A stretch of DNA of 44,489 bases from a virus. Taxonomy: Duplodnaviria; Heunggongvirae; Uroviricota; Caudoviricetes. Both the position numbers and the translations under genes were made by a program. Below, piece by piece: positions 20,301 to 44,489 of the stretch (position 1 is the stretch's first letter; every line of letters starts with the position of its first letter). The notes beneath the pieces were generated by a model. The model was given only the letters and a program-made list of their open reading frames with translations, made no database searches and was not told where the DNA came from. The stretch covers positions 64,001-108,489 of IMG/VR virus record IMGVR_UViG_3300031992_000041; one strand, given 5' to 3'.

Positions 20301-22368
20301 GCGCTCCACCTACGACGCCATCCAGGACGCCATCAAGAAGGAGGCCTCGCTGATAAAGAAGCAGGTGGAGATACAGTGGAACGACGCGCTGACGCCTGAC
20401 GGCAAGAGCATGAAGCAGGCGTTTGAAGGAACGCTGTCGGCTCTCGGGCTGAGGGAAGACCAGGTGAAGCGCGCAAACTCACTTATCAGCGCGGGGCAGG
20501 CCAGCGAGCGCGTGGCCGACAGGATCGCCGTCAAGCAGATGAAGATACGCCTCCAGATGCAGGAGACGTACTACAAGATGCTGCGCAAGATAGGGATGGA
20601 GCGCATAGCCCAACTGGAGGCGGCAGGCAAGCACGAGGATGCCGAGCATGTGCGCAAGAGCCTGAACCTGGCACTCAGCGAGGAACAGAAGAAACTGGAC
20701 GAGCAGCGCGTGGCCATCGCCAACCAACTGGAGGAGAGCCAGAACCGCCTCTACCAGGAACTGCGAGAGTGGGGCGACCTGATGGCGTCGTCGGTACAGC
20801 AACTCTTCGAGGCGAGCAACGCGGGCAACGCCGAGTACTACAACGAGCGGGCGAAGATGAACCTGACGGGCAGGGGAGGGCCCGGGGCAGGGACGTACAT
20901 CGTCATCGACAACGAGGGCACCAGCGACGCACGGGCGCACTACGAGTACCTTGACGAGCGGCAGGCACTGGAGCGCCACCGCGAGATAGAGCAGCAGAAC
21001 GCCGTGGCCGACGCATGGAAGAAGGTGATGGACGACATCAACCAGAAGATGAGCGACATGATCACCGACCAGATCAACGCCATGCTCCAGAACGACAGCA
21101 TCGACGCGAACACCGACGCGCTGGGAGCCAACACGCTTGCCATACAGGCACTGAGCAATGCCATCACCGGGATGGGCATGGGCGGCGCTGAAGAGCCGGC
21201 CGGACTTGCCGGAACGGCAGAAGGCAGCACGCCGGGCGTCAGCCCTGCGGCGCCGGAGGGCCTGACGACCGAACAGGTGCAGGAGTGGAAGGACGCGCTG
21301 GGCGACAACCCGATGCTGTTCTGGCAGGAGCAGAGCGACGCTGCCACGCAGAAGATGCTCGCCAACATGGGCGAGATACAGAAGGGGCAGCAGGAGGCAG
21401 GCGAGAGCATGGCGGCCAGTGCCCAGAGCACCTTTGCCAAGATGTCGCTGGCAGCCAACATGTACGGCGTAGCCTACCAGGCCATGACCAACAGCAACCT
21501 GAGCACGACGCAGAAGTTCGAGATGATGGCCCTGCAGGCCGTCGGCAACTACGCCATCTCAAGCCTCACGGCCTTTATGGCAAAGACGGCGGCGGAGGGT
21601 GTGGCGAACGAGGCCTCGGTGCTCGGCAAACTTTGGAGCCAACTGGGATGGGCCGCCGCACCTGTGTTCGCCATCTTCACGGGACTCCTCGGCGCAGCCA
21701 TGGGCGCTGCGACGAATGCCGTCAGCAAGTCGAAGAGCCAGATCGCGCAGGCCACGGGCTCGTCGGTCGGCGCAGGGCGGCTGGCAACGGGCATGCTCAC
21801 CTATGGCGAGGGTAACGTGAACGAGTTCACCGACCCCGCCTCGCTGACACCTGGCAGGCACTACAACGTGGACGGAGCAGACGGCAGGACGTACCGGGCA
21901 CGGTACATGGGCAAGGATGCCAGGACGCACATCACCAGCGGCCCGGAGTTCCACCTCGTGGGCGAGAAGGGCAGGGAGGCCATCATCGACGCACATACCA
22001 CGCGGAACATACAACTGAACGAGCCGGAGATATGGAACACCATACAGACGCTCTACAACGGCGGCTCGCTGGCCGCACGAAGGAGGCGCGCCGCAAGAAG
22101 GGGCGTCCGTGCCTTTGCCGACGGCAACATCGACGAGTTTACGGAGACCGACGGCCTGACGGGTACCGACGGCGCAGGCGAGACGGCACTGGGCTTCGAC
22201 CCTGCCGCCCTGCAGGCGTCGCTCGACCGCAACAGCGCCGTGCAGGAAGCCCTGCTTGAGCGGCTGGCGAAGCCGCTGACGGTCAGCCCCTACGGCCCGG
22301 ACGGCATCGTGGCGGCCTACGACAAGTACAAGAAGGAGGCCTTGCGCCACGGCGAGAAATACATCTAA
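14338..22368 (+). CDS. Tail tape measure protein
   Basis: 2676 aa, helical Ala/Glu/Lys-rich; TP901-like core (DKMGEVRKTTGF...AAGQLG...VKRVGAVG...ALGSTV...SATALSRM). Confidence 0.9.
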   Translation: MSNKITLATIQFRADAKGANAALESLRQSSKDAHDEAERMREALDKGIKTMKDANGVDFDVARKFSEMTKQAKNFDQAIRELVKGATALETVVKNIRLGEIEASSRAELKGAINAAEARKRSVRETDPEDLQQQRELNIVIEESRKQLNNLDRDTQKVIETLDRGGTIAQSVLDKEMKGLREILTMIPKGTDEWNKYNQQLQQMETHVTNIRRQEREQASALLGSKDLGQYSEEDIRAAITNAKELLATYKTASPEAKQLADNIVRAEQFLKGYGVEAARQAAREAEQLRLEKELATTMNKRLRDLKNLSADALEETRRYWEAQRNGAAEGTTEFNKAEAALKKIDGYTRSSRRAELTSILGDPSKFGVSEVKAAVQEAEKLRDSVQKGIPVWFQYNKMVEQGRAYLDQMAKSEAAERINQQMKNLNTTLSDAGLQEVKKYWETMVAGAEKGSRELADYEAKLKEVIAEEQSRKTAAQQRSIDLFASRDLGGYSEKEIREAIEAGKQLIQTYNTADPAAKRLAENIVRAEEHLKQYGVEAERTAAREQKTVEEAAKKREESHQAMEEQLRRGTGLTQSALRAQEQYWQRMADDPKAASNEIARYFENLNKVRALQKEQEADLVKGQGISALQFFRGDTSNASADQIMENAKALKAYRNSLPQKDQANLIIEIDGYLAKSGQVAKEATGELMNLGEALEMAGKAGKDGFSATEDEIKKAIASIEKAIEIDRELVKQHRRAGNTQMAEYNEEEIKEYEKALKGLNLELKNVGISHERMQKILDNPINADNLDELRAAIKRAKAELNSMDGALGENRKQYDEMAKSVKQAEQQLKVMEGQARGTASAFEKAWSRLKTYVGLYVGASVAMNKLVGTMGDLMDLSDKMGEVRKTTGFTADEVGRLSGELKKMDTRTTLNGLLDLSVAAGQLGLKTEEDVLGFTEAANKLMVALPEMGKEGATEMLKVALATGEIDKIRKQMEQGLIDGSSATAVAMEKVGSTIDRLRATSAATAPAITDFVKRVGAVGAQSGITIDQVAALGSTVDALGMRVEMSATALSRMIPAIKNNAFALAQAIGVPPETIRDLFDTGRGMEVILMVLQRIKDSGMDADSIEQMLGMAGMKDIMKDLNQQGARAGIVFAGLSQNVDTLRQHLVTANEAYEENVAIQKEYDKMNETTAAKWERLKNQLEEAFVGDSSQRFLGGIIDFLRTIVDLLTGSNGISVAIRTILLYIGLVRLQLISIATGALKGIGTGLRNIGVMLGFIKGEMTKLQWGNIFTAAAGAVLYLVMALKDAASAMSAVSKAIAQLEEDLRKETRTLSELFHTVSKTNVELEKSRRRLEEVKEAGGDAANAENKLKKASADHAAAIREINSKYGSYLGYMLSETSSAEQLARARELINSKLRETITLKQREAALGGIEQEFGGKVNKKAASVESTLQMFFGKDYDAAARVSVAISEAAQKYAKDSKEYQKAVKKILADNKMKEVSEGYMEQFEDYRKAIEEYKTQEEIVNRRFVAQVNASRKDSREKAVASLNAIQKDWQELVTKYQKAEGEEKEKLAVEVYKQQRNYANSLANNADYFDNDKRKDVFDKNVKNMATYEKGLRSVAGEAIRTVDAMERAETKITNTDFTNGGNSAKNPWGAALGGESTDWKNMTAEQLVNRRQQMNKFVNAIQTDTDVQSVLKEDAALKKAIEKGMSSDMRTVIEWYNTERLKIQDELHARHLTNTGDWLDPKKERARKKRLQEEWKYYLDELDAYYTERKSRIQEAGNEEGVTQGEVQSRTLANEAEWHQRRAELQALYADKSVEVTQQEQDAIYSIIAERTGDDADFVMKTIGKTVGFMKKIGEKSPTEYRKALGILDKGMEKDFLQQQQAIARQMQAIQDIIDKERPFNGITKNLRENLATMGILTADMARERDRLMAAGEDMADFNARQAAEEVRRTAFMLGEAENAYSATVEDVMRRMADKGMTAWADELRRNPKMQEGLMAQLRSTYDAIQDAIKKEASLIKKQVEIQWNDALTPDGKSMKQAFEGTLSALGLREDQVKRANSLISAGQASERVADRIAVKQMKIRLQMQETYYKMLRKIGMERIAQLEAAGKHEDAEHVRKSLNLALSEEQKKLDEQRVAIANQLEESQNRLYQELREWGDLMASSVQQLFEASNAGNAEYYNERAKMNLTGRGGPGAGTYIVIDNEGTSDARAHYEYLDERQALERHREIEQQNAVADAWKKVMDDINQKMSDMITDQINAMLQNDSIDANTDALGANTLAIQALSNAITGMGMGGAEEPAGLAGTAEGSTPGVSPAAPEGLTTEQVQEWKDALGDNPMLFWQEQSDAATQKMLANMGEIQKGQQEAGESMAASAQSTFAKMSLAANMYGVAYQAMTNSNLSTTQKFEMMALQAVGNYAISSLTAFMAKTAAEGVANEASVLGKLWSQLGWAAAPVFAIFTGLLGAAMGAATNAVSKSKSQIAQATGSSVGAGRLATGMLTYGEGNVNEFTDPASLTPGRHYNVDGADGRTYRARYMGKDARTHITSGPEFHLVGEKGREAIIDAHTTRNIQLNEPEIWNTIQTLYNGGSLAARRRRAARRGVRAFADGNIDEFTETDGLTGTDGAGETALGFDPAALQASLDRNSAVQEALLERLAKPLTVSPYGPDGIVAAYDKYKKEALRHGEKYI

Positions 22369-22372
22369 GGAG

Positions 22373-24793
22373 ATGGAGGAGCAAAGACGAGACATAGACC
22401 TGATTGTGCCGATGGTGTTTCCCGACGACCCTGAGTGGCAGGCGGAGTACCGCCGTGCCAAGGGCGGCGCCGCACCGGAGACACACGTACGATATCGCTC
22501 ATGGGGAACCGAGGAACTGCTGATACGGTGCTGCCTGAAGTACATGCCTTGGCTCAGGCGGATATACATCCTGCTGGCGAGGGAGAGTCAGGTGCGACCG
22601 TGGATGGGCTCCTTGGCCGTGCAGCATGCCGGACTGCCGGAGGTGAGGGTAGTGTTCCACCGGGAGTTCATGCCGCAGAGATACCTCCCGTGCTTTGCCA
22701 GTCCGTGCATGGAGATGTTCCTGCACAGGATCCCGGGGCTGGGCGAGCAGTTCATCTATGCCAACGACGACATGTTCCCGCTGTCGCCGCTGGTGCCGGA
22801 GGACTTCTTCCGCGACGGCCTGCCGTGCCAGAGGATCACGGACAGGGCATACCCTGCCGCTCCTGGCCTGTTCCAGCGCAAGTGCATGTGGCAGCAGAAC
22901 ATGATAGGCAGGCCTTTCGGCAGGCACTTCACGAAGACGTACCCGGACACGGGGCACGTCTTCTCAGCCATCCTGAAGAGCAGTTGCGAGGAGGTGTGGC
23001 GCAGGCACGGTGGCGAGATAGCCATGTACATCTCGCCGCTCAGGCGGACGGACCGGTCGGCCAACAACTGGATATACCAACTCTACCAGCAGTACAGCGG
23101 GCGCTACGTGGACCACAGGCCGCCAAGCCACTATACTGACGACACGACGCCGACGGCGCGGGTGGCGGATATCATACGCGACCCCGGCGCTGGCATCGTG
23201 TGCCTGAACGACAACGAGCACATCGGCGACTGGCAGGTCCGCGCGGCGATAGTGCGAAGGGAGATACGGGCGAAACTGGAGGCGGCTGAAGCCTTGAAGA
23301 CGGAGGACATGACGATGAGGACGGCAGTAGTGGCCATCGGAAGGCGCGAGAACATGTATGCCAGGGAGTTCGTCGAACACTACCTCGGACTGGGCTTCGA
23401 CCACATTTTTATCCTCGACAACAACCATGACGGAGAGGAGCATTTCGAGGATGTGCTCGGAACGTTCATAGATGCGGGGACGGTGTCGGTCCATGACTAC
23501 CGCAACCGCGAGGCCGTACAGGCGCAGGCATACAACGAGACCTACCGTGGATTCCATTCTTCCTATGACTGGATGGCATTCTTCGACTTCGACGAGTTCC
23601 TCGTGATGAAGCAGGGAACGGTGAAGCAGTGGCTCGGCACGTTCGGCAGGGACGAGGACGTGGCCCTTGTGAACTGGATGTGCATGACCGACGGCGGCAT
23701 GATCTACAACGACGGCAGGCCGCTGACGGAGCGCTTCACGGAGCCAATGCCATACGACCGTTGCGTGCAGCGCAGGTTCCCTGAGAACGACCATGTGAAG
23801 AGTATCGTGCGCGGCGGCCTGTCAGAGGTCTGCTTTACGAACCCACACGTGCCGGCGACCCCACACAACCCAAGGCCGTCGCCCTTCCGCCGGTACGACT
23901 TCTCGGCGGCCTGCCTGAAGCACTTCACCACCAAGACCATCAGCGAGTGGATGTCGAACAAGTGCCAGAGGGGCGTAGGCGACAGGAGCAAGGAGGACTT
24001 CGACCGCAAGTACGCAGGCCGGTTCTTCATGTACAACGAGCGGACGCCGGAGAAGCAGGCATACATGGACGGCTTCGTTCGCAACGCGGGGATGACGGCG
24101 GCCATAGTCCACTACAACACGCCGAAACTGACGCGCGCGGCCGTGCTTTCGCTGTGGAAGCACACGCCGGGGTGCCGCGTGGTGGTGTTCGACAACAGCG
24201 ACCGCCTGCCCATCGCGGGATGCAGCCAGTGGGACGACCTGCGCAGCAGCCCGCTGGTGACCGTCATCGACAACACCGGGGGGCAGGTGATAGACTTCGA
24301 CGGGATGCTGGCGCAGTATCCCGACCGTGAGCTCGGCGACCGCAACAAGAGCAACTTCGGCTCCGCAAAGCACACCGCGTCGGTCGACAGGCTCTTCGAC
24401 CTCCTGCCGGAAGGATTCCTGCTGATGGACAGCGACGTGCTCATCACCCGTGACGTCGCACCGCTCATCGACAGGAGCGTTGCCGCCGCAGGCACGGTGC
24501 AGCCGAACGCTGGCGTGATGCGACTGCTGCCGCTGCTCTGCTGGGTCAACGTGCCGGTGCTGCGGGAGCACGGCATACGCTACTTCAACGGAGACAGGAT
24601 GTGGGCGCTCAGCCGGCGGCAGCCCGACAACCGCTACGACACCGGCGCATGGGTGCTGGAGGAGATCAGGCGCCACGGGCTGGAAGTCAGAGAGACGGAC
24701 GTCATGCGCTACCTCATACACCTGGGACATGCCTCATGGCGGGACAGGAAGCCGATGGCGTGGGTCATGGCACACAGGGAACTGTGGGAGTGA
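22373..24793 (+). CDS. Three-domain fusion: Stealth-family phosphoglycosyltransferase plus two GT-A-type glycosyltransferase domains
   Basis: Stealth-like DIDLIVPMV, RYRSWG..ELLIRC..KYMPW, FIYANDDMF, CLND; second domain HYLGLGFDHIFILDNN..WMAFFDFDEF; third AIVHYNTP..VFDNSD..LLMDSDV. Confidence 0.8.
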   Translation: MEEQRRDIDLIVPMVFPDDPEWQAEYRRAKGGAAPETHVRYRSWGTEELLIRCCLKYMPWLRRIYILLARESQVRPWMGSLAVQHAGLPEVRVVFHREFMPQRYLPCFASPCMEMFLHRIPGLGEQFIYANDDMFPLSPLVPEDFFRDGLPCQRITDRAYPAAPGLFQRKCMWQQNMIGRPFGRHFTKTYPDTGHVFSAILKSSCEEVWRRHGGEIAMYISPLRRTDRSANNWIYQLYQQYSGRYVDHRPPSHYTDDTTPTARVADIIRDPGAGIVCLNDNEHIGDWQVRAAIVRREIRAKLEAAEALKTEDMTMRTAVVAIGRRENMYAREFVEHYLGLGFDHIFILDNNHDGEEHFEDVLGTFIDAGTVSVHDYRNREAVQAQAYNETYRGFHSSYDWMAFFDFDEFLVMKQGTVKQWLGTFGRDEDVALVNWMCMTDGGMIYNDGRPLTERFTEPMPYDRCVQRRFPENDHVKSIVRGGLSEVCFTNPHVPATPHNPRPSPFRRYDFSAACLKHFTTKTISEWMSNKCQRGVGDRSKEDFDRKYAGRFFMYNERTPEKQAYMDGFVRNAGMTAAIVHYNTPKLTRAAVLSLWKHTPGCRVVVFDNSDRLPIAGCSQWDDLRSSPLVTVIDNTGGQVIDFDGMLAQYPDRELGDRNKSNFGSAKHTASVDRLFDLLPEGFLLMDSDVLITRDVAPLIDRSVAAAGTVQPNAGVMRLLPLLCWVNVPVLREHGIRYFNGDRMWALSRRQPDNRYDTGAWVLEEIRRHGLEVRETDVMRYLIHLGHASWRDRKPMAWVMAHRELWE

Positions 24794-34505: not shown

Positions 34506-35057
34506 TTAGCCGTTGCAGCCACAGCCAGGGCAGTTACAGGGCTGGGGAGCCGAGTAGATGCAGACGGGCTGTGCATCGAGGCTGGAGCGGCCTGTCAGAC
34601 GGTCGGAGACAATCTGGTTCATGGCCGTGGCGTAGGCCGAGTTCTCCACGGTGGTAGCCTGGGTCTGAGCCGCGCTCTGCTGGCCGCTGATCGTGTCGGT
34701 GATGGTCTGCGTGATATTCAGGTCGCCGTTGATGCGACGGGTCACCTCAGACTCCAGCAATGCGCCGATGTTGTCCAGACGCTTGTCAACACCGTTGTAG
34801 TAGGCGACTGCCAGTTCCTTGGCTGACTGTGCAGCCTCCTTGGCTTCCTTGCCCTTTGCGCTGGCCTGCATGCCTCCGAAGATCCACGCGGTAACGCCAG
34901 CCACGACGGCAACAGAGCCAACAGTCAGTCCGGCGATGGCCACGCCTGACGGTTTCTTTGCGGACAGGTAGTCCAATTTCACTTGCTCATAGGGAGTCAT
35001 CCCTTCCTTCTCGCCCATCGAACGGAGGGCCATCAGGTCTTGCATTTCTAATGCCAT
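34506..35057 (-). CDS. Hypothetical membrane-anchored protein with Cys-rich C-terminus
   Basis: 183 aa; hydrophobic GVAIAGLTVGSVAVVAGVTAWIFGG; ends CNCPGCGCNG. Confidence 0.8.
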   Translation of the reverse strand: MALEMQDLMALRSMGEKEGMTPYEQVKLDYLSAKKPSGVAIAGLTVGSVAVVAGVTAWIFGGMQASAKGKEAKEAAQSAKELAVAYYNGVDKRLDNIGALLESEVTRRINGDLNITQTITDTISGQQSAAQTQATTVENSAYATAMNQIVSDRLTGRSSLDAQPVCIYSAPQPCNCPGCGCNG

Positions 35058-35179
35058 AGTGGTTTTGTTTTTGTGTTGTTAATAATGTGGTTATTTATCT
35101 CGCGGGTTCCTTGCAGAATCCACGGGCAAATTTAGACATTAAAACAATGCGCTCCAAAGTTTACAGGGAAAACAGGGGG

Positions 35180-35702: not shown

Positions 35703-36854
35703 ATGGAAAAAGCAAAACGACCGAAAATCAGGTACCGGCTGACCTGGAACTACGGCAACCGACTTGACAGGCAGGGTCGATCGCCGGTGGCCCTGGAGTG
35801 CAGGCAGGGAACAAGGAAGATATACATATCGTCGAAGGTTATGCTCGCGGCAGGGCAATGGATGGACGGCAGGGTGGTCAACCACCAGAACGCAGACAAA
35901 CTGACCGTCTGGCTCGTGCGATGGATGAACTCCATCGAGGAGATCGAACTCGACGCGCTGCTGGCAGGCTCGCAGATGTCGCTCGCGCAACTGAAGTCGG
36001 CCGTCAGCGACAGCGCGCACCGGTCGGCCTCGCTCAGGGACTTCACGGAGAGGTTCCTCGACGGCGACTCCAGCCGCTGTGAGACCACGAAGCGGTCGTA
36101 CCGCTACATGGTGAACGACCTGGAGAAGGAGTACGGCAGCCTGACCGTTGGCGACGTGAACTACGACCTGATCGTGCGATGGCGCGAGGTCATGCGGCGC
36201 AGGAATCTCAGCGAGAACACCATCAGAGGCCGCCTGAAGGCATTGCGCTGCCTGATGGAGCAGGCGCGGCTGCGCGACATCATCGAGAGGAACCCGTTCG
36301 ACAGCATCACCATCGGCAACATAGGGGGCCGCAAGGGAGGACTGACCGTCGGCGAGGTTCGCAGGCTGGAGAGGCTCAACCTGTCCGGCAAGGAGGAGAA
36401 GGTGCGCGACCTCTTCCTGGTTGGATGCTACACGGGCCTCCGCTGGGGCGACCTGTCGTCGCTTGAAGAGTCGGAGATCCACAACGGCATCCTGCGCAAG
36501 ACCATGCACAAGACGCACCACGAGGTGGCCATTCCGCTGGCCACGCTCTTCTGGGGCAAGGGAATGCGTATCATGGAGAAGTACCCCGACATCCGCGTAC
36601 TGTCTAAATGCGTGTGCAACACCACCGCCAACCGCATCCTGAAAGACTTGGCCGAAAGGGCGAAGATCAAGAAACGCGTGTACATGCACCTGGCCAGGAA
36701 GACGTTCTCGCAGATGCTCAACTCACTGGGCATGGAAAGATCTGACATCACCATGCTCATGGGCCACCGCGACGTACGCACGACACTCACGCACTACATC
36801 TTTAACGACACTGACCGCATCAAGAAATCCGTGAAGAAAATCTTTAAGACATAG
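35703..36854 (+). CDS. Tyrosine recombinase (Bacteroidetes integrase type), probable shufflon recombinase
   Basis: Catalytic set YTGLRWGD (R), MHKT (K), HLARKT (HxxR), MGH..TTLTHY (H,Y); N-terminal arm-binding-like and SAM-like domains; ends 56 bp before the first array site. Confidence 0.93.
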   Translation: MEKAKRPKIRYRLTWNYGNRLDRQGRSPVALECRQGTRKIYISSKVMLAAGQWMDGRVVNHQNADKLTVWLVRWMNSIEEIELDALLAGSQMSLAQLKSAVSDSAHRSASLRDFTERFLDGDSSRCETTKRSYRYMVNDLEKEYGSLTVGDVNYDLIVRWREVMRRRNLSENTIRGRLKALRCLMEQARLRDIIERNPFDSITIGNIGGRKGGLTVGEVRRLERLNLSGKEEKVRDLFLVGCYTGLRWGDLSSLEESEIHNGILRKTMHKTHHEVAIPLATLFWGKGMRIMEKYPDIRVLSKCVCNTTANRILKDLAERAKIKKRVYMHLARKTFSQMLNSLGMERSDITMLMGHRDVRTTLTHYIFNDTDRIKKSVKKIFKT

Positions 36855-36909
36855 CACAGGCATCCATAGCGGCCACATCACGTTCCTGATCTGTCTTGTC
36901 ACGGCTCAG

Positions 36910-36926
36910 GCAATTCGTGCTGGGCG
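36910..36926 (+). repeat. Left terminal 17-bp inverted repeat / recombination site
   Basis: GCAATTCGTGCTGGGCG equals the reverse complement of 44473-44489. Confidence 0.9.
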
Positions 36927-37192
36927 TTGGAACTCGTATATATAGTTCCGCTGACTTGGATAGTTTGTCTAATGGCGTATATGGATGGAATACCAACGGC
37001 GAGACGCCTACTCACTCTCCATTTACTGGCGGTGGCACTGTATTGCAATATGGAGATTGGGTGAAGACACAGATTTGCCAATCCTATGGTGGAGCAACGT
37101 ATAGCAGGAACAAACAAGGCTCTGGGGACTGGACTTCTTGGGTGCGTTGCGATAACTATGGAACATCGACACCTGCCGACCTCGCTTCACTG
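36920..37192 (+). CDS. Cassette C1 (knob-like domain plus linker, read-through into C2)
   Basis: LGVGTRIYSSADLDSLSNGVYGW...SRNKQGSGDWTSWVRCDNYGTSTPADLASL; no stop. Confidence 0.8.
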
Positions 37193-37480
37193 CTGGGCGC
37201 GTTATGCTTTAACAAGATTGGTAACACTAATCCAGACAACGTCCATCATACTATGTTTTTTAGGTTTGGAGGCTATACGGTAAAACACTCGTCAGGTTCT
37301 TATGCTGGAGCCTATGGTCTCGGTGTGTCTTTTGTGGAGGAAGGTGTAAGCGATACATACTATGACGAATTTATTTTGGTTCACAACACCGACACCATCT
37401 ATTATCGTAGTGCGACTATCGCCAATAATGGTACTTTGGATTGGAGTACCATAAATTGGAAAACAGTGACAAGTGTATAA
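37193..37480 (+). CDS. Cassette C2
   Basis: Starts at CTGGGCG; LGALCFNKIGN...IYYRSATIANNGTLDWSTINWKTVTSV*; hairpin 37491-37508 follows. Confidence 0.8.
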   Translation: MGALCFNKIGNTNPDNVHHTMFFRFGGYTVKHSSGSYAGAYGLGVSFVEEGVSDTYYDEFILVHNTDTIYYRSATIANNGTLDWSTINWKTVTSV

Positions 37481-37509
37481 CAAAACAAGAGGGAGGCTCA
37501 GGCCTCCCA

Positions 37510-37737
37510 TTATTGCGTCACTTTTGTTGCTTGTATACTTGCCCAAGAAATCCACGAGCCATTTAAACCAAATCTCGTCCTAAATAGCACATTAGGGTTG
37601 CCTGCATAGTCGTTTGGTACATATACTTGCAAAGTAATTATATTGTTTGTTGCAGCAATTACTATAAACATCCCCCATTTGTAGATAGCCCCCGGTATTC
37701 TGACGTCTGCATTATCCATTCTATAAACTCCTGGGCG
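37510..37737 (-). pseudogene. Cassette C3, 5'-truncated by the site at 37731
   Basis: RPGVYRMDNADVRIPGAIYKWGMF...FRTRFGLNGSWISWASIQATKVTQ*; in-frame stop just upstream, no site of its own. Confidence 0.7.
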
Positions 37738-37991
37738 GAATAGTTACAGAACTTGGTTCATCAGATGATCTATTCGACCTGCCTTACCCAGGCTATTATT
37801 ATTGGAATTCAATATCCCAGGCACCGGCGAATACACCAAATGGAGGACCCCAAGGTAGTTATGTCGAGTATCGTGCTTACATGTCTATCAAAACACTGAG
37901 AGTATACAACAATGGAGGAAGGATTTACACCAATATCTATTGGAACGGATGGAAAGGTTGGAATCAAGTCACATTGACACCGGTTTCGTGA
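37731..37991 (+). CDS. Cassette C4
   Basis: Hand translation LGGIVTELGSSDDLFDLPYPGYYYW...IYTNIYWNGWKGWNQVTLTPVS*; hairpin 37996-38016. Confidence 0.8.
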   Translation: MGGIVTELGSSDDLFDLPYPGYYYWNSISQAPANTPNGGPQGSYVEYRAYMSIKTLRVYNNGGRIYTNIYWNGWKGWNQVTLTPVS

Positions 37992-38019
37992 TAAGAGGTA
38001 GGGCCAAGCCCTACCTTTT

Positions 38020-38298
38020 TTATTGAACGGTTGGGATTTCAATCCATGTAGATGGCCACACAAAATCTTGCCCCTTTGGAGTGTACTTACACCTATAATA
38101 TTTCTTTCCGTTACCAATATATGTTATTTCTTGATAAGCATAGTCTCTAACAATTATACACCTGCCCAAACCATAGCAACCGATTAACCCATTGATAGTC
38201 TGCTGACCAAACCGAAACAAGGTATTTTGCTCACCTGCCATATCATCTAAATTTGTAATAGGATTATTTGGGGCAATTACGATAGAAATTACGCCCAG
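38020..38298 (-). CDS. Cassette C5
   Basis: LGVISIVIAPNNPITNLDD...YYRCKYTPKGQDFVWPSTWIEIPTVQ*. Confidence 0.8.
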   Translation of the reverse strand: MGVISIVIAPNNPITNLDDMAGEQNTLFRFGQQTINGLIGCYGLGRCIIVRDYAYQEITYIGNGKKYYRCKYTPKGQDFVWPSTWIEIPTVQ

Positions 38299-38306
38299 AA
38301 TTCGCG

Positions 38307-38579
38307 CTGGGTGGCACAATACAAGGAATAGTTACTCCTGATACCTATGATAGTGCGGACAAAAACGGCTTATATCAAGTAAATGGGTCAAGCGCAACAG
38401 ACCCTATTCTTGACTGGGGACGTCTATTCACGGCTGTTCAAGGTGTAACCCATTGTCTTCAAATCAAATATTGTGCCAATGCTAAAACAATTATTATAAG
38501 GTACAAATACAAAACCTCTTCCATGAGTGCTGCCGAGTGGACTGCGTGGAGTAAAGTAAATGTAACCGCTCTCACATAG
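38307..38579 (+). CDS. Cassette C6 (site variant CTGGGTG)
   Basis: Hand translation LGGTIQGIVTPDTYDSADKNGLYQV...IRYKYKTSSMSAAEWTAWSKVNVTALT*. Confidence 0.8.
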   Translation: MGGTIQGIVTPDTYDSADKNGLYQVNGSSATDPILDWGRLFTAVQGVTHCLQIKYCANAKTIIIRYKYKTSSMSAAEWTAWSKVNVTALT

Positions 38580-38595
38580 AGGGCGGTTATTACAT

Positions 38596-38928
38596 CTGGG
38601 CGTTCCTGATATTAGTGGATTATTCAATGCATTCAATATTCCAGCAAACTCAGACTTAAATGATTTGACTAGTTATCCTTGCTACAAAAGTCCAGGACAA
38701 TCGGTAAGTTCAACATTGTCAAACATACCATCTGACTTAACCACATCGGTTGGCTTTATTCTTCTTAACTTTAAGCCTTATACAGGTGTATCATATTCAG
38801 TCCAAGTCATATTGCAAACTGTATTCGATAGGACAACAACTCCGAAGATTTGGGCGCGTGGACAGACCGACCATTTGGATAATAGCAAGTGGACCGTTTG
38901 GGGGCGTGTATCATTGACAACAGTATAA
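38596..38928 (+). CDS. Cassette C7
   Basis: LGVPDISGLFNAFNIPANSDLNDLTSYPCY...IWARGQTDHLDNSKWTVWGRVSLTTV*; hairpin 38931-38956. Confidence 0.8.
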   Translation: MGVPDISGLFNAFNIPANSDLNDLTSYPCYKSPGQSVSSTLSNIPSDLTTSVGFILLNFKPYTGVSYSVQVILQTVFDRTTTPKIWARGQTDHLDNSKWTVWGRVSLTTV

Positions 38929-38954
38929 AAAGAGGTAGGATTAATTTTCTACCT

Positions 38955-39233
38955 CTATAATGTTCTCCAATCGGTCCACACTGAGTTATATCTGTACCTT
39001 GTATATATCATCCCGTTTCTGTCATAAAGAGTTTGCGTAATGTAATAATCCGATATATTGGCTACATCAAGGAAGAAACGTGTTGTGTTAAGAAAGCCTG
39101 TCGGAAGATTATTTGGAGCGGTTGTTAGGACATAAAACGTACTTGTTTTATATCCATCATTTCCTATCTCATTGTCTAAATCGGACGTTGCAGATGATTG
39201 AAATATCCGTGTCTTTATACCAACTGCGCCCAG
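38955..39233 (-). CDS. Cassette C8
   Basis: LGAVGIKTRIFQSSATSDLDN...IYTRYRYNSVWTDWRTL*. Confidence 0.8.
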   Translation of the reverse strand: MGAVGIKTRIFQSSATSDLDNEIGNDGYKTSTFYVLTTAPNNLPTGFLNTTRFFLDVANISDYYITQTLYDRNGMIYTRYRYNSVWTDWRTL

Positions 39234-39241
39234 AATTCGCG

Positions 39242-39535
39242 CTGGGCGGAATAAGCACAACTATAACATCAGATAATGACCTTGATAATATTACGGGAAC
39301 TGGTATCTACAAGTTTACTAATTCTACCCCTCAGAACAGTCCTGTTGAACTTGGTGTTGTTGTTGTTTTTTCAGCGCGTCTATCAGGAGATATCTATGGT
39401 GTCATCCAGTTTGCATCAGACACAAGAGGAGGGCGTAACAAAGAAAGAATAGTAAACATATATTACAGGGTCGCATGGACTAATGCTACTAACGGATGGA
39501 GTAAGTGGGCAATGATTAATACCACTGAGGTCTGA
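39242..39535 (+). CDS. Cassette C9
   Basis: LGGISTTITSDNDLDNITGTGIY...YYRVAWTNATNGWSKWAMINTTEV*; hairpin 39542-39564. Confidence 0.8.
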   Translation: MGGISTTITSDNDLDNITGTGIYKFTNSTPQNSPVELGVVVVFSARLSGDIYGVIQFASDTRGGRNKERIVNIYYRVAWTNATNGWSKWAMINTTEV

Positions 39536-39568
39536 TAATAAGAGGTGGGCTAACAACCCACCTCATTA

Positions 39569-39883
39569 TTATGATACAAATGCTATTTTCTTCCATTCAG
39601 TCCAAGTATACGGAGTTGACATATTAGTCACGTTCCTAATCCATATACCATCTAACTGAATGAATATCTGTGTCTCGAACGCAGTGATATCGCCATAAGG
39701 CTTAATGTTAATTACACTGAATCCATAATTTGTTGATGCTGTTTTTGGCATATTTACAACAGTCTTTGATATAGAAGCGGATTGACATCTGTAGGATGCC
39801 CTTAATGTCAATTGGTTCAAGTCATCATTACTGTTGATTTTTTCATCCGCTGCAATAGAGCCTACGACACATGCCACGCCCAG
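39569..39883 (-). CDS. Cassette C10
   Basis: LGVACVVGSIAADEKINSNDDLNQL...IWIRNVTNMSTPYTWTEWKKIAFVS*. Confidence 0.8.
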   Translation of the reverse strand: MGVACVVGSIAADEKINSNDDLNQLTLRASYRCQSASISKTVVNMPKTASTNYGFSVINIKPYGDITAFETQIFIQLDGIWIRNVTNMSTPYTWTEWKKIAFVS

Positions 39884-39885
39884 AA

Positions 39886-40155
39886 TCAAGAAAGAGTAAA
39901 CGTCTTCCAAGGTGAGAATGTTCCACCTACACTCCAAACATTACGAATCTTTATATAACGAAGTTGATAATCAAATTTTACCTGAATACCCCTTTTTGAT
40001 GTAGGGTAACCGGAAACACGACCAACTTTGACGTTGGTGTATAGAAGGAATATATCGTCTGTTATTCCTTGGTCATAACAATACCATCCAGGTTCGAGAG
40101 AACCTAAGAATTCGTCACTCTTATCTGTTATTGCGGTGTATATCACCCCGCCCAG
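39886..40155 (-). CDS. Cassette C11
   Basis: LGGVIYTAITDKSDEFLGSLEPGWY...KIRNVWSVGGTFSPWKTFTLS*; stop 2 bp before the next site. Confidence 0.8.
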   Translation of the reverse strand: MGGVIYTAITDKSDEFLGSLEPGWYCYDQGITDDIFLLYTNVKVGRVSGYPTSKRGIQVKFDYQLRYIKIRNVWSVGGTFSPWKTFTLS

Positions 40156-40163
40156 AAGGGGTT

Positions 40164-40454
40164 CTGGGCGGTATTACTACACCAATATCTCAAAATGACA
40201 ACATTGATAATTATCGAAATTGCGGGAGATTTGCATGCGCATCAAATGCAATAGCATCGACACTAACAGGGCTCCCGTCTGGCTATAATAGTGGAGGATT
40301 CATCTTATTCGTTCTTCCAAGTTCGCAATCTGATAACGGTTTTAGGATTCAGTTGATGGTTAATTATAGGTGTACTGCTGTATACATACGTGCTTATCAA
40401 AGCAATGTTTGGGAAGGTTGGCGTACAATAACAACAAATGCCGTAACAGCATAA
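40164..40454 (+). CDS. Cassette C12
   Basis: LGGITTPISQNDNIDNYRNCGRF...YIRAYQSNVWEGWRTITTNAVTA*; hairpin 40455-40480. Confidence 0.8.
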   Translation: MGGITTPISQNDNIDNYRNCGRFACASNAIASTLTGLPSGYNSGGFILFVLPSSQSDNGFRIQLMVNYRCTAVYIRAYQSNVWEGWRTITTNAVTA

Positions 40455-40519
40455 AGGATGTTAGCGCATACCAACATCCTACACAGACAAAGCAAATGGG
40501 AGGTATAAGCCTCCCTTTA

Positions 40520-40626
40520 CTATACTGGTGTATTTGTCAACTTGTACCAATCAGAAACAATGCTTGAACCTCCATTGATATCCCTGCAATATATTCTTAA
40601 AGTTGAATCTCGCACATAGAATTGCA
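40520..40626 (-). pseudogene. C13: orphan 3' fragment paralogous to C18
   Basis: LQFYVRDSTLRIYCRDINGGSSIVSDWYKLTNTPV* versus C18 VQFYVRDTSLNTYCRDINGGSGTISSWFKFTNTPVQ*; own hairpin 40498-40515. Confidence 0.75.
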
Positions 40627-40696
40627 AAGTTATGGTGTGCTTGTGTACGCTCTTCCGCATCGTCCTCCTTTGAACAGTGAACGAACAATAGAACCT

Positions 40697-40849
40697 CTTG
40701 GCGGTGAGGCTGATTTCGCAAATGTCACTACCTTAAAAATAATCAGGGGTTCAGATGGTTCGGCAGATATTGGTCATATCACCTTAACTAATTCATGTTC
40801 AGAACTAAGACAATTTCTCTATTCTTACATTCCAGTAAGAACAACATAA
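40697..40849 (+). pseudogene. C14: short cassette at variant site CTTGGCG
   Basis: LGGEADFANVTTLKIIRGSDGSADIGHITLTNSCSELRQFLYSYIPVRTT*; hairpin 40862-40882. Confidence 0.45.
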
Positions 40850-40895
40850 GTTAAGAAAAAGAAGGGAGGTACTTCCTCCCTTTTTTACACTGTCA

Positions 40896-41225
40896 TTAGA
40901 ACGACACTTTCTTTACGCTTAAAACTGCGGTTTTCCCGTTTTTTATGGTCACTGCAATAGTAAATCCGTCAGTCTGTGAGTTATTTTTTTCAATACTAAG
41001 CGTGGATGATGACAATGCCCCATTGCTCCATAAGACCTGTACGTCTTTCTGCCATGTCGCCCTGTCGCATACGGCCACAAGCAAATAGTTTTCTATGTTT
41101 TCTCCAATTAAATTGATGCTATATATCTTTATAGCAGACCCACCTCTTGCGCTTGTCCATTGATAACTCCCAGACACGCTAACAGAATCAGAAATAACCT
41201 CTGTCGTGTTGCCCACTCCGCCCAG
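40896..41225 (-). CDS. Cassette C15 (non-knob, beta-rich)
   Basis: LGGVGNTTEVISDSVSVSGSYQW...TAVLSVKKVSF*; lacks the terminal W-x-x-W. Confidence 0.75.
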   Translation of the reverse strand: MGGVGNTTEVISDSVSVSGSYQWTSARGGSAIKIYSINLIGENIENYLLVAVCDRATWQKDVQVLWSNGALSSSTLSIEKNNSQTDGFTIAVTIKNGKTAVLSVKKVSF

Positions 41226-41238
41226 CAATAATAATAAA

Positions 41239-41526
41239 TTATGTAATTAATGTCAATGATACTTGGTACCAGCCATCACTCCATCTTGTACCATTCCAAG
41301 TACGGATATATTCTTGAGGAAAAATATTGTTTGGATAGATTTTCTGAATCAATCGTGTACCATTTATATTGCTTGTTGGTAGTACTTCAAGCCTAAAACC
41401 AGAACCAACAACAGGACAATTTGCAAGCGTCGCGGCAGTAGCGGAATCAGTACAATAGTACGCTCCAATACCAATAATATCATTAAGATCTTGATTGGCA
41501 CTAATCTTTGTTGCTGTCCCGCCCAG
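41239..41526 (-). CDS. Cassette C16
   Basis: LGGTATKISANQDLNDIIGIGAYY...GFRLEV...YIRTWNGTRWSDGWYQVSLTLIT*. Confidence 0.8.
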   Translation of the reverse strand: MGGTATKISANQDLNDIIGIGAYYCTDSATAATLANCPVVGSGFRLEVLPTSNINGTRLIQKIYPNNIFPQEYIRTWNGTRWSDGWYQVSLTLIT

Positions 41527-41535
41527 CACGAGATT

Positions 41536-41811
41536 CTGGGCGTGTCGTGGATAACGATTTTTAAAAGTGGGGCTCTTTCTGAATGCTATCGAAACGGTTT
41601 GTATGCTATACAGTACAACAATGTTGCAGATATCACGGACATTCCTTGCAATGGACATGGATATATGATCACCCTGAGTGCTACGAACGTATCTTCCACA
41701 ACGTTTGCGCAACTATATGTCTCAATTGTTGGTAGAGCGTTTTTTCGTGTTAGAAATGGTGCTGTTGTTCTGTCTAACTGGAAAGAATTGACAGCAACGG
41801 GAATATCGTAA
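41536..41811 (+). CDS. Cassette C17
   Basis: LGVSWITIFKSGALSECYRNGLY...FFRVRNGAVVLSNWKELTATGIS*; hairpin 41813-41838. Confidence 0.8.
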   Translation: MGVSWITIFKSGALSECYRNGLYAIQYNNVADITDIPCNGHGYMITLSATNVSSTTFAQLYVSIVGRAFFRVRNGAVVLSNWKELTATGIS

Positions 41812-41836
41812 AAAAGGGAGGTTTTTTAGCCTCCCT

Positions 41837-42133
41837 TTACTGTACTGGTGTATTTGTAAACTTGAACCAGGAAGAAATTGTGCCTGAACCACCATTGATA
41901 TCCCTGCAATATGTATTTAAACTTGTATCTCGCACATAGAATTGCACAGAACTTCCACTAATAAATAGATTTATAAGAAAGCCAAAAGCACGTTCAGGCA
42001 TGTCTTGGAACTTACCTGTATTAATAACAGCCGTAGGCACAGCCATTAATATATTCTTTCTCAAACTTGCAATACCTTCAAATGTATCTGGCGTCGAGGA
42101 ATCGGAGGCTGCAAGTGTTACAAATGCGCCCAG
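41837..42133 (-). CDS. Cassette C18
   Basis: LGAFVTLAASDSSTPDTF...YCRDINGGSGTISSWFKFTNTPVQ*. Confidence 0.8.
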   Translation of the reverse strand: MGAFVTLAASDSSTPDTFEGIASLRKNILMAVPTAVINTGKFQDMPERAFGFLINLFISGSSVQFYVRDTSLNTYCRDINGGSGTISSWFKFTNTPVQ

Positions 42134-42213
42134 CGCACCAAAATATATCATAGTATTAGATTTAGAAATGATTGACAAGGCTCACTGTGGTGGGCCATTT
42201 TTCATATAAATAA

Positions 42214-42245
42214 TTTGGTAGTTTCAGATATTATTCCTATCTTTG
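42214..42245 (+). promoter_or_regulatory. Housekeeping promoter inside the array
   Basis: TTTG (42214-42217), 20 bp, TATCTTTG (42238-42245); preceded by a hairpin plus T-run at about 42179-42202. Confidence 0.7.
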
Positions 42246-42262
42246 CTGGCAAATAAAACATA

Positions 42263-42517
42263 ATGAATATGCAAACAGACATTAGTAACAAAGTACCACA
42301 AGGGACTTACGAAGTAGCCACACGAGAAACTTTTCCTGGAAAAGTAATGTTTTCTGATGAAAGTATAATACTGACCCCTGAGAATGATAGTAACAAACAA
42401 ACGAGGCTATATTCCGACAATAATAAACATGAGATAAGGATTTCCACTCGTCACAGGAAAGATGAAAAGCATCCTTGGAGTGAGTGGGAATTGAAGTCTA
42501 CTATATCTAATAGATAA
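42263..42517 (+). CDS. Stand-alone small protein with its own ATG and promoter
   Basis: 84 aa, no CTGGGCG site; ends ISTRHRKDEKHPWSEWELKSTISNR; hairpin 42519-42545. Confidence 0.7.
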   Translation: MNMQTDISNKVPQGTYEVATRETFPGKVMFSDESIILTPENDSNKQTRLYSDNNKHEIRISTRHRKDEKHPWSEWELKSTISNR

Positions 42518-42559
42518 TAAAAGGAAGGCGATGAGCCTCCCTTTTATCTATTATAAATC

Positions 42560-42823
42560 TTACTGTCTTAATGTTACTTCCACTTTGTACCAAGGCTTCC
42601 ATTCGTTGTTCCACATAACTCTAAATCCAAGGCCTGAAACTTCAATATTGTTTGGCCACTGAAGTTGAAAAATTTGTGTCCCTGCTTTCCAAACTAAGAG
42701 CAGCGAGCCTTGTGGTCTGAAATTATTTAATGGAGCAGTACCACTGCCAGACCACGAATATACACCTGCACTTACAATATTATTTAGGTCGTTTTGATTT
42801 GTAATGATAGTTGCTTCGCCCAG
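42560..42823 (-). CDS. Cassette C19
   Basis: LGEATIITNQNDLNNIVSAGVYSW...FRVMWNNEWKPWYKVEVTLRQ*. Confidence 0.8.
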   Translation of the reverse strand: MGEATIITNQNDLNNIVSAGVYSWSGSGTAPLNNFRPQGSLLLVWKAGTQIFQLQWPNNIEVSGLGFRVMWNNEWKPWYKVEVTLRQ

Positions 42824-43007
42824 AACTTCCACCAATAAATAGATTTATAAGAAAGCCAAAAGCACGTTCAGGCATGTCTTGGAACTTACCTGTATTAATA
42901 ACAGCCGTAGGCACAGCCATTAATATATTCTTTCTCAACCCTGCAATACCTTCAAATGTATCTGGCGTCGAGGATTCGGAGGCTGCAAGTGTTACAAATG
43001 CGCCCAG
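42824..43007 (-). pseudogene. C20: 3'-truncated near-identical copy of C18
   Basis: 4 mismatches to 41950-42133 over 184 bp; joined out of frame to the C19 site. Confidence 0.85.
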
Positions 43008-43016
43008 AACCACAAT

Positions 43017-43196
43017 TCAAGGCAGCGCGATTCCTTCATGTTTAATCCATGGCCCCCATATTTCTCCATTGAGAGTCCTATGGTAAAACGTATTTTTTGC
43101 AGTTGTACCAGCCGTCAAACGTTGCACAATATGAGTAGTAGTCGTACCCATGACAAGAACCTCTAAGACGAAGCCATCTCGGGTTAACTCTTCTGG
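43017..43196 (-). pseudogene. C21: 5'-truncated cassette
   Basis: Hand translation PEELTRDGFVLEVLVMG...FYHRTLNGEIWGPWIKHEGIALP*; cut by the plus-strand site at 43193. Confidence 0.75.
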
Positions 43197-43489
43197 GCGG
43201 TATTCCTCAAACTATCATTAACGACGGTAGCCCAAATTTAGATCTCAATACTTTATTTACATGTGGTATCTATGCGGTAGCAAAATCATCCGCTTGGCCA
43301 AATATTTACAACAAGCCTACAGGCGTTTTGACAGGTGGTAACATTATAGTACTTGTTGGAGGAAACAACAGTTACAGATTACAGATTATCATATCGTTAA
43401 ACGGCATGATTTTCTTAAGATACATCCATACCGATTCTGCCAACAACACCCACTGGTTCAAGATTCAACTGACAGATGACGGACAATAG
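43193..43489 (+). CDS. Cassette C22
   Basis: Hand translation LGGIPQTIINDGSPNLDLNTLFTCGIY...FLRYIHTDSANNTHWFKIQLTDDGQ*. Confidence 0.8.
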   Translation: MGGIPQTIINDGSPNLDLNTLFTCGIYAVAKSSAWPNIYNKPTGVLTGGNIIVLVGGNNSYRLQIIISLNGMIFLRYIHTDSANNTHWFKIQLTDDGQ

Positions 43490-43508
43490 AAGAGGAGGGC
43501 AAAGAAAC

Positions 43509-43562
43509 TTAAACGAGGTAAAAGGTTGCACCTTCATTAATAAGAAAGTTTTTAACGCCAAG
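43509..43562 (-). pseudogene. C23: 17-aa mini-cassette at variant site CTTGGCG
   Basis: LGVKNFLINEGATFYLV*. Confidence 0.55.
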
Positions 43563-43572
43563 CACGAGATTT

Positions 43573-43836
43573 CTGGGCGTGTTGCCTATCCTTAATAGCA
43601 ATGGTACAATCACTGACTTGGATACTTTGAGTAACCCAAGTGGGTGGTATAAATTTAACGCTTCACAGAATGTTGCCAATGTCCCAACTAGTTTTACTGA
43701 TGGATTCGTTTGGATAATGAGAACTTCTGACAACAACATTTTCCAAATGGCTCTTAAATATGATTTTTCTATGTTTGTGATTAGACTTAAATGGGGACAA
43801 AATTGGACTAATTGGAAGAGTATATCATTATCATAA
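43573..43836 (+). CDS. Cassette C24
   Basis: LGVLPILNSNGTITDLDTLSNPSGWY...IRLKWGQNWTNWKSISLS*; hairpin 43840-43863. Confidence 0.8.
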   Translation: MGVLPILNSNGTITDLDTLSNPSGWYKFNASQNVANVPTSFTDGFVWIMRTSDNNIFQMALKYDFSMFVIRLKWGQNWTNWKSISLS

Positions 43837-43864
43837 ACAAGAGGTGGGTTAATGCCCACCTCTA

Positions 43865-44173
43865 TTATGCTTTAACCCAGTCTGTCCATTCAGAATTTAA
43901 ACCAGCCCTATAGACGCGCAGATAAACGCCGTTATTTCCAAAAGACTGCATACCGACACCCGTAACGAATAAAACTTGAACCGACCTTGAATTGACATTC
44001 CATCCATAGGAAAGCAAAAGTGCCTGGTCTTTGGTAATACCTGTAGGGCCGTTAACCCAATTGTTCTCGTTGGTAATATAATATAAACCGTAGTCTATGG
44101 CTTGGTTGAAGTCAAAGTTTGGGACAGGACCTCTTCTCTTGAGATAGCCCGTTATAAGATTATCCCCGCCCAG
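43865..44173 (-). CDS. Cassette C25
   Basis: LGGDNLITGYLKRRGPVPNFDFNQAIDYGLYY...YLRVYRAGLNSEWTDWVKA*. Confidence 0.8.
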   Translation of the reverse strand: MGGDNLITGYLKRRGPVPNFDFNQAIDYGLYYITNENNWVNGPTGITKDQALLLSYGWNVNSRSVQVLFVTGVGMQSFGNNGVYLRVYRAGLNSEWTDWVKA

Positions 44174-44479
44174 CGCGGAGGCAAGTTGTGCTAAATATGT
44201 TGGTCTTGTAAGAATGTCTGTTGAATAATCCATAATCCAATCACTCCAAGTTGGAGTTGGAGCGTTAGTTACCATAGTTCTTTTATAGGTAATTCCTTCT
44301 GCCATCTTTATAAAGTACTGTATAGTATAATTATTTGCGACTTCTACATACAAAACTCCATAGGTGTTTACAGGCCAATAAGTACCTTGGTATGCATATA
44401 TTCTATATTTACCTTGCGTCCGTAATGCGTCAATGTCAGCATCTGTCTTGTTCCCATAATCAATTGTGTTAGCGCCCAG
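44174..44479 (-). CDS. Cassette C26 (knob-like domain plus linker, read-through into C25); frame stays open to the right edge
   Basis: LGANTIDYGNKTDADIDALRTQGKY...YKRTMVTNAPTPTWSDWIMDYSTDILTRPTYLAQLASA; upstream codons CAA TTC GTG up to the window end. Confidence 0.8.
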
Positions 44480-44489
44480 CACGAATTGC
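44473..44489 (-). repeat. Right terminal 17-bp inverted repeat / probable expression-site junction
   Basis: Reverse complement GCAATTCGTGCTGGGCG, identical to 36910-36926; the match is cut off by the window end. Confidence 0.85.

Follow-up and report, generated by a model that had tools for sequence, protein, structure and literature searches.

A knob-cassette array beside a tyrosine recombinase

We studied a window of 44,489 nt from a tailed phage, i.e., positions 64,001 to 108,489 of the IMG/VR virus record IMGVR_UViG_3300031992_000041, whose last 7.6 kb hold a dense array of short repeats and start-less reading frames. We consider it highly probable that this array is a multiple-inversion shufflon, run by a tyrosine recombinase and exchanging knob tips, in a phage of rumen Bacteroidales. 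It shows three general properties of such systems: short repeats in both orientations, an adjoining recombinase and, as seen in relatives, a constant 5' part with alternative 3' ends. A first-pass annotation, made from the letters of the window, had proposed a multiple-inversion shufflon next to a tyrosine recombinase, and the Pfam, PHROG and PDB sequence matches given below support it. Coordinates of all features are collected in Table 1; cassettes are referred to by the position of their site.

Sites and array anatomy

The heptamer CTGGGCG occurs 29 times in the window, and 20 of these copies (9 on the plus, 11 on the minus strand) fall within 36920-44479. Under a first-order Markov model with the composition of the array itself, 0.34 copies are expected there, and the maximum among 500 simulations is 4. 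Three variants add to the list, i.e., one CTGGGTG (38307) and two CTTGGCG (40697, 43556), such that the earlier count, including its estimate of less than one copy by chance, is reproduced. All sites start a Leu-Gly frame without a start codon, and 20 site-headed frames span 86-110 codons, which is again what had been read from the sequence; two nested double units reach 186 and 204 codons. Conservation at the sites is confined to the 7-mer plus the two preceding bases (T, then T or G).

The frames tile the array nearly gap-free, and head-to-head sites are spaced 8-10 bp. Terminator-like sites are enriched (17 vs. 6.6 +/- 2.8 in shuffles). The layout first described, in which two cassettes face each other across a hairpin with their sites outermost, applies to the convergent pairs, which indeed have common G+C-rich hairpins, but several other units stand in tandem. 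Likewise, the estimate of about 20 intact cassettes agrees with the 20 frames but has to be qualified: the unit at 43001 is a frameshifted chimera, the units at 40697 and 43556 are dead, and the cassette at 41219 lacks a knob-profile match.

Knob identity of the cassettes

With this one exception (41219), all cassette open reading frames (ORFs) match a single knob-domain profile that we built from 44 cassettes (19/20). The cassettes are homologous yet divergent, with a median pairwise identity of 20% and only L1, G2 and one W invariant. The sequence pattern D-L-N..G.Y..P..Q..Y.R..W..W, which the first-pass annotation had noticed amid wide divergence, is real. Neither the single cassettes nor the small variable protein they complete match anything in Pfam, PHROGs or NCBIfam. 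Compared with solved structures, on the other hand, the profile hits 6cl6 with an E-value of 1.5e-11 as well as 6cl5 and 6ct8 (R1/R2 pyocin fibres), and it further matches the receptor-binding protein (RBP) of phi812 and the F2 pyocin side fibre. A Foldseek search with the AlphaFold2 (AF2) model of the cassette at 41239-41526 agrees: 6ct8 and 6cl6 come out on top (TMq 0.75; 6ct8 with probability 1.00), followed by phage RBPs and fibres. That is, judged by profile and predicted fold, the cassettes are homologues of pyocin knobs and thus domains of a receptor-binding type, and the initial impression of a pyocin-knob resemblance was correct. Among 1.84 billion library representatives, the profile has 11,542 matches, the best of which are long proteins with 3-13 tandem copies. 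R-type pyocin knobs (6cl5, 6cl6, 6ct8), which by profile and fold belong to the same domain family, are trimeric and stand in tandem, but they are fixed parts of a 700-aa fibre, while each knob of the window is a movable cassette.

Roughly one in two site-led cassettes of relatives (many of them in loci L045, L004 and L098) shows no match to the knob profile; these cassettes form several other small families. The same is true for 40896-41225 (minus strand) of the window and for residues 55-156 of the database protein P0159. Such arrays thus mix different tip folds.

The adjoining recombinase

The recombinase at 35703-36854 matches the PHROG integrase family (8e-29) and, among PDB sequences, XerA and the Tn1549 integrase. 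Its residues R247, H329, R332, H355 and Y365 do not vary across three orthologues. In the window only this tyrosine type was found and none of the serine (resolvase/invertase) type. We collected 122 loci via homologues of the enzyme, and 56 of them carry at least one knob-profile match beside the recombinase homologue. In relative L003 (6802-9378), two tandem tyrosine recombinases of 449 and 390 aa precede the array; the window enzyme is orthologous to the second of them and just 28-31% identical to the first.

Joins at the sites

Had the array been shuffled, alternative joins at CTGGGCG or rearranged arrays were to be expected, and both exist. The 296-aa database protein P0003, from this genome or a very near one, consists of the knob of 36920-37192, LG and the double cassette of 44473, an order that makes it the crossover product of site 37193 (plus) and site 44473 (minus). 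The sheep-gut runs X1 and X2 contain nearly the entire stretch and are a possible source of the window. In their Logan unitigs, the graph branches exactly at this pair of sites, at 37193 and at 44479, where the unitigs halt. The 52-nt reference junction at 37193 has a depth of 5.9 compared to 12.3 and 9.3 in its flanks, and a second junction unitig is present with depth 2.1. The last 10 nt of the window repeat the left flank of the array in reverse complement and represent a third partner for the 44473 cassette. Finally, data from two other studies show the same cassettes in different, opposite-strand joints exactly at sites, i.e., 40172 to 44166 and 37730 to 43009 in X3 and 41536 to 42145 in X4.

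We did not count everything that resembles a join. Unitig breaks at 41989 and 42133 were rejected as inversion evidence since a 190-nt duplication explains them, and the X3 joint 38298 to 42667 was set aside because it is not at a site of the window. The remaining joins make strong evidence for site-specific exchange and fair evidence for ongoing switching.

The constant gene beyond the right end

In relatives, the canonical layout is recombinase, array and then, on the far side, a short constant N-terminus that is read toward the array and ends in ...ANLASV directly before the LG of a site. L002, L045, L046 and L004 have this same architecture, with constant parts of 43 aa (L046), 46 aa (L002) and 104-111 aa (L045 and L004). 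The constant part is preceded by the gene of a small membrane protein and by large genes of tail-like type. The contig of the window ends 10 nt past the last array site, which explains why no such gene is seen in the window; a tblastn search of the whole contig with the constant N-termini of L045 and L002 returned nothing. Circular closure, which would place the gene at the other contig end, was discarded: that end starts with an unrelated truncated membrane-protein gene, and the joined ends are out of frame.

The 32 nt that open the last cassette of the window, used as a search pattern, led to L124. This contig encodes a 54-aa N-terminus (MGLLSNALDALFKK...MPNLASV) that is fused at a site to a cassette start identical to window positions 44479 down to 44354. 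L125 combines the same N-terminus with the same cassette; that is, the 44473 extender is the unit fused to the constant part in both. L126, L127 and P0159 show the 54-aa N-terminus with three other C-termini, which amounts to at least four different C-termini across the samples of L124-L128. A search with the constant N-terminus itself gave one further variant only, and the 54 residues gave no family match. As these near-identical contigs show, the constant part comprises 54 residues at the N-terminus of a small protein (~150-260 aa), whose gene comes last, behind the tail module. The constant part, expected as a long gene entering from the right, thus does enter from there (L124, L125), but it is not a long fibre gene.

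A 41-nt A-rich leader precedes the start of the constant gene (L124 285-324; L126 ~5460-5500). It is 85% identical to window positions 35054-35094, the leader of the minus-strand gene 34506-35057, and possibly reflects a start or promoter context shared within the phage group.

In a 99-kb contig from ENA, which we compared by its gene list, tail genes are followed by the genes of an 86-aa membrane protein and a 149-aa variable protein. Then come 6.4 kb in which no gene is called, a 296-aa gene and, last, the gene of a tyrosine recombinase of 383 aa. The site-to-site span amounts to ~7565 nt vs. 7560 nt in the window, which implies that the window holds the whole array and that the constant gene begins just past 44489. 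The cassette part of the 149-aa gene has 95 aa, a length that cassettes 37193 and 41520 share. The tail module of L125 is syntenic with those of L002 and L046 and absent from the window's contig, which places it in the tenth of the genome that the contig lacks. Within this module of L125, a 113-aa gene (7387-7728) separates the gene of a 1122-aa tail-like protein from that of the membrane protein; its product matches PHROG 15610 'protease' (3e-34).

The module at 42134-42559 inside the array, whose flank reads MIYFGA into the LG of site 42127, was considered as main expression site and rejected, since in L003 the same module (97.7% aa identity) forms the left array boundary adjoining the recombinase. 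Furthermore, a proper constant N-terminus stands at the far end of the array in canonical relatives as well as in L124-L128. A 32-nt stretch in this module (42214-42245) has a depth of 42-51 with many unrelated flanks in all four metagenomes and is therefore present at high copy in these communities; Rfam and tRNA scans gave no match for it.

Proposed mechanism

We propose that the ~22 short sites with the core CTGGGCG, all read in one frame as Leu-Gly, would serve as crossover points for ~20 promoterless, start-less cassettes, each providing a pyocin-knob-type domain of ~90 residues followed by a hairpin. One site copy would end the 54-residue constant N-terminus (...MPNLASV, then LG) of a small gene just right of the window that is read toward the array. 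Inversion between this site and any oppositely oriented one would place a different knob behind the constant N-terminus, while sites of the same orientation would need two inversion steps. The recombinase at 35703-36854 presumably catalyses the joins, and switching may be frequent.

Two cassettes may add a second tier. Those at 36920 and 44473 end in a linker (...ADLASL and ...QLASA, respectively) plus a site, i.e., they copy the end of the constant gene, such that the frame continues into the next cassette. By means of these extenders, products with one, two or three knobs could arise. In accordance with this, the proximal knob LGA(N/D)TIDYG is found with four different distal cassettes (window, X3, P0004 and P0006), and P0003 is a chain of three knobs. 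This would give ~18 terminal tips and up to ~90 combinations.

The product is best read as a trimeric, exchangeable tail-fibre tip, given the trimer prediction, the knob homology and the position after tail genes; as such it would sit on the virion and set receptor specificity and thus host range. For the small protein of L002, the trimer model reaches an ipSAE (interaction prediction score from aligned errors) of 0.87 vs. 0.00 for the best control, with contacts along N-terminus and knob and intertwined N-termini. Runs agree in at least 78% of the contacts, with a partner predicted local distance difference test (pLDDT) of at least 74. In our calibration, the ipSAE mark is reached by 21/30 proteins solved as one-chain pairs and by 0/23 solved as single chains; this calibration refers to two copies rather than three, and the pass of L002 may reflect its likeness to solved knob trimers.

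Alternative explanations

Several observations weigh against a switching array of virion tips. Just 7-9 bp per site are conserved, without obvious binding arms, and neither the recognition of such sites by the recombinase nor the avoidance of deletions between direct repeats is explained by the proposed model. All joins were read from assembled sequences, and some of the differences between samples could be fixed rearrangements. The constant gene is found neither in the window nor elsewhere on the contig; its link to this phage consists of 126 identical nt plus the matching gene lengths in the ENA contig. The 149-aa fusion expected from one inversion did not turn up with the 37193 cassette as query; the only match was the window's own ORF. 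In addition, the tail-module genes upstream of the constant gene are almost without annotation.

Some of this would suit a fossil array, i.e., a pool of duplicated knob cassettes that recombines on evolutionary time, e.g., by homologous exchange in co-infection, with one fixed arrangement per strain. The majority of the rearranged joins stem from other samples and studies, the repertoire varies between strains, and dead as well as chimeric units are present. We nevertheless deem this reading improbable: every join coincides exactly with the 7-bp site and leaves the Leu-Gly frame intact, and in the possible source runs X1/X2 the graph forks at the two sites that one predicted inversion would pair, where the junction has only part of the flanking depth. 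Moreover, a conserved recombinase accompanies the arrays in more than 50 loci, and the homologous array of BV01 was shown by reads to switch (PMC13596623). Of slightly lower probability still is a real shufflon whose variable small protein is no virion tip but, e.g., a decoy or a protein that the lysogen secretes or displays on its surface. The very short constant part (54 aa), the small membrane protein immediately upstream and the failure to find an annotated baseplate partner speak for it. On the other hand, the domain is that of pyocin and phage fibre knobs and is found as tandem copies in thousands of long fibre-like proteins; in L002, L125 and L046, the gene is the last of a module with tail-like proteins; the predicted trimer has intertwined N-termini; and the constant N-termini, read by eye, lack an obvious signal peptide.

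Hardly any weight is left for an assembly artefact, in which cassettes of related phages were stitched into a chimera at the common 7-mer. It could account for a contig that stops within the array on an inverted 10-nt copy of its left flank and for the assemblies of relatives that often break at the array. Independent Logan unitigs of two runs, however, tile the whole array with 99-100% identity, one 4.8-kb piece of them extending across eleven sites, the ENA contig has an array of equal length between the same genes, and L045 and L004 hold even larger arrays fully inside longer contigs. We thus retain the multiple-inversion shufflon of fibre-tip knobs as the preferred explanation.

Relation to known systems

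The R64/IncI1 shufflon (Rci, sfx, PilV) follows the same logic: one tyrosine recombinase acts on many short sites in both orientations with nested segments, and one constant 5' part is combined with alternative C-terminal ends of ~70-110 aa, as in the window. It differs in having seven C-termini, a 19-bp sfx site, a long constant part of ~360 aa and a conjugative-pilus adhesin rather than a phage knob as target. Site-specific inversion also exchanges the C-termini of phage tail fibres in the Gin (Mu), Cin (P1) and Min (p15B) systems, as proposed here, but these use serine invertases with enhancer and Fis and reach two to a few states, while the window enzyme is of the tyrosine type. Min of p15B has six crossover sites (PMC6109161). 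The first-pass annotation, which was right in kind with its shufflon of receptor-binding knobs, compared it with R64, Mu and P1 only and missed the phage shufflons already published.

The closest of these is the tail-fibre shufflon of BV01-like phages of Phocaeicola vulgatus, with three cassettes, six variants and the motif TGGGAGAACT in 1.7 kb and with read-level proof of switching (PMC13596623, Research Square preprint 2026). Compared by sequence, the system of the window is homologous to it. BV01-type recombinases (L037, labelled P. vulgatus ATCC 8482; L098; L019) are homologous to the window enzyme with 30% identity over ~360 aa (residues 8-370 for L037 and L098), and the cassettes of these three loci match the same knob hidden Markov model (HMM) as the window cassettes. 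The constant N-terminal part is short in BV01-type loci as well (at most 98 aa), and the host order is Bacteroidales in both. The BV01-type site CTGGGAGAAC, which contains the published motif, differs from CTGGGCG, but both have the CTGGG.G core and the Leu-Gly reading after ...V. The directional motif at the heads of BV01 cassettes is absent here, where CTGGGCG has no conserved extension. Furthermore, the recombinase of BV01-type loci lies on the opposite side of the array, and the window has 20 cassettes in 7.6 kb and adds extenders that chain knobs.

The Rin shufflon of Bifidobacterium prophages comprises five cassettes with the 11-bp rix site TTCCCTAACCC (Mavrich et al. 2018, PMC6109161). 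Like the window system, it is phage-encoded and combines a tyrosine invertase, a constant RBP N-terminus and promoterless variable C-terminal cassettes, each headed by a short asymmetric site. The rix site itself, a constant part related to the RBP of phage 1358 and the actinobacterial hosts set it apart.

For comparing array sizes, we counted site-led ORFs of at least 70 aa. L045 has 25 and L004, a metagenome-assembled genome (MAG) of a rumen Prevotellaceae, 24 of them, compared to 20 in the window and up to 10 in BV01-type loci, i.e., the window array is not the largest of its family. Our literature search found no description of arrays of this size. Phage shufflons are therefore known already; the array of the window is several times larger than any published example and would be two-tiered.

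If our reading is true, one phage genome stores ~20 ready-made receptor-binding tips, i.e., a host-range library far beyond textbook two-state switches. Such a library could help to explain how phages keep pace with capsule-varying Bacteroidales, and the cassettes, related as they are but highly divergent, would provide a compact panel of knob domains on which glycan recognition can be studied. We would go further only tentatively and with some doubt, namely to regard the 20-25-cassette arrays of rumen Bacteroidales as the largest natural inversion libraries known, two-tiered with ~90 tips of one to three knobs, and as a programmed answer to phase-variable host capsules. In practice, metagenome assemblies break at such arrays: the contigs of the window and of several relatives stop within theirs, which biases virome catalogues.

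Array features, genome context and host

Table 1. Features of the array and its borders in window coordinates (strand '.' if none is assigned).
Feature	Position	Strand	Remarks
Tyrosine recombinase, 383 aa	35703..36854	+	transcribed toward array; Pfam Phage_integrase 4.6e-12, Phage_int_SAM_5 3.3e-9
Fixed left flank of array, recombinase side	36896..36919	+	last 10 nt GCAATTCGTG recur reverse-complemented at window end
Proximal 'extender' cassette	36920..37192	+	knob plus linker ...TPADLASL into internal site 37193; knob HMM 3e-16
Cassette, 95 aa	37193..37480	+	knob HMM 1e-14; X1/X2 unitigs branch at its site
Cassette, 86 aa	37731..37991	+	in X3 joined, in opposite orientation, to 43008-43196 spacer
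Cassette, 92 aa	38020..38298	-	
Cassette, 90 aa	38307..38579	+	site variant CTGGGTG
Cassette, 110 aa	38596..38928	+	
Cassette, 92 aa	38955..39233	-	
Cassette, 97 aa	39242..39535	+	
Cassette, 104 aa	39569..39883	-	
Cassette, 89 aa	39886..40155	-	
Cassette, 96 aa	40164..40454	+	in X3 replaces 44167 cassette behind 44473 proximal knob
Cassette, 109 aa (site 41219)	40896..41225	-	no knob-profile match; different tip type
Cassette, 95 aa (site 41520)	41239..41526	-	the modelled one; AF2 pLDDT 92, predicted template modelling score (pTM) 0.82
Cassette, 91 aa	41536..41811	+	in X4 joined to 42145-42512 module
Cassette, 98 aa (site 42127)	41837..42133	-	5' 190 nt duplicated at 42818-43007
Non-cassette module inside array	42134..42559	.	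84-aa ORF 42263-42517 (+); flank runs into site 42127
Cassette, 87 aa (site 42817)	42560..42823	-	
Broken cassette, 75 aa (site 43001)	42780..43007	-	duplicated 5' part of 42127 cassette, fused out of frame to 42817 cassette
Cassette, 98 aa	43193..43489	+	
Cassette, 87 aa	43573..43836	+	
Cassette, 102 aa (site 44167)	43865..44173	-	
Proximal 'extender' cassette (site 44473)	44174..44479	-	knob plus linker ...YLAQLASA into internal site 44167
Contig end	44480..44489	.	10 nt GCAATTCGTG reverse-complemented, i.e., reverse complement of 36910-36919; not constant gene
Terminator-like hairpins between or after cassettes	37491-37508, 37992-38019, 38929-38954, 39542-39564, 40498-40515, 40862-40882, 41812-41836, 42519-42544, 43840-43863	.	

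The window represents the final 44.5 kb of a 108,489-bp contig that is classed as linear and ~91% complete; the phage genome may comprise ~120-140 kb. Relatives of the recombinase come nearly all from Bacteroidales MAGs and from viral contigs of gut and rumen, and the host is probably a rumen Bacteroidales of the Prevotella type. A megablast search of the array against GenBank phages gave no match, as did Rfam and tRNA scans of the array. The array has a GC content of 39-40% compared to 55-64% in the phage. Its low value could come from cassette exchange between phages of different hosts or from a structural requirement. The array of L045 (11300-19800) similarly shows 36-39% vs. 53-66% in its phage, i.e., it is also ~20 points lower.

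The window also encodes structural genes, among them a head protease and a tape-measure protein (14338-22368, plus strand), which with 2676 aa is very long and implies a very long tail. Directly 3' of the tape-measure gene lies the gene of an 806-aa protein (22373-24793, plus strand) with a Stealth CR2 domain (6.9e-25) and glycosyltransferase family 2/92 domains. Such a fusion, i.e., a capsule-type sugar-phosphate transferase or glycosyltransferase, is unusual at this location after the tape measure.

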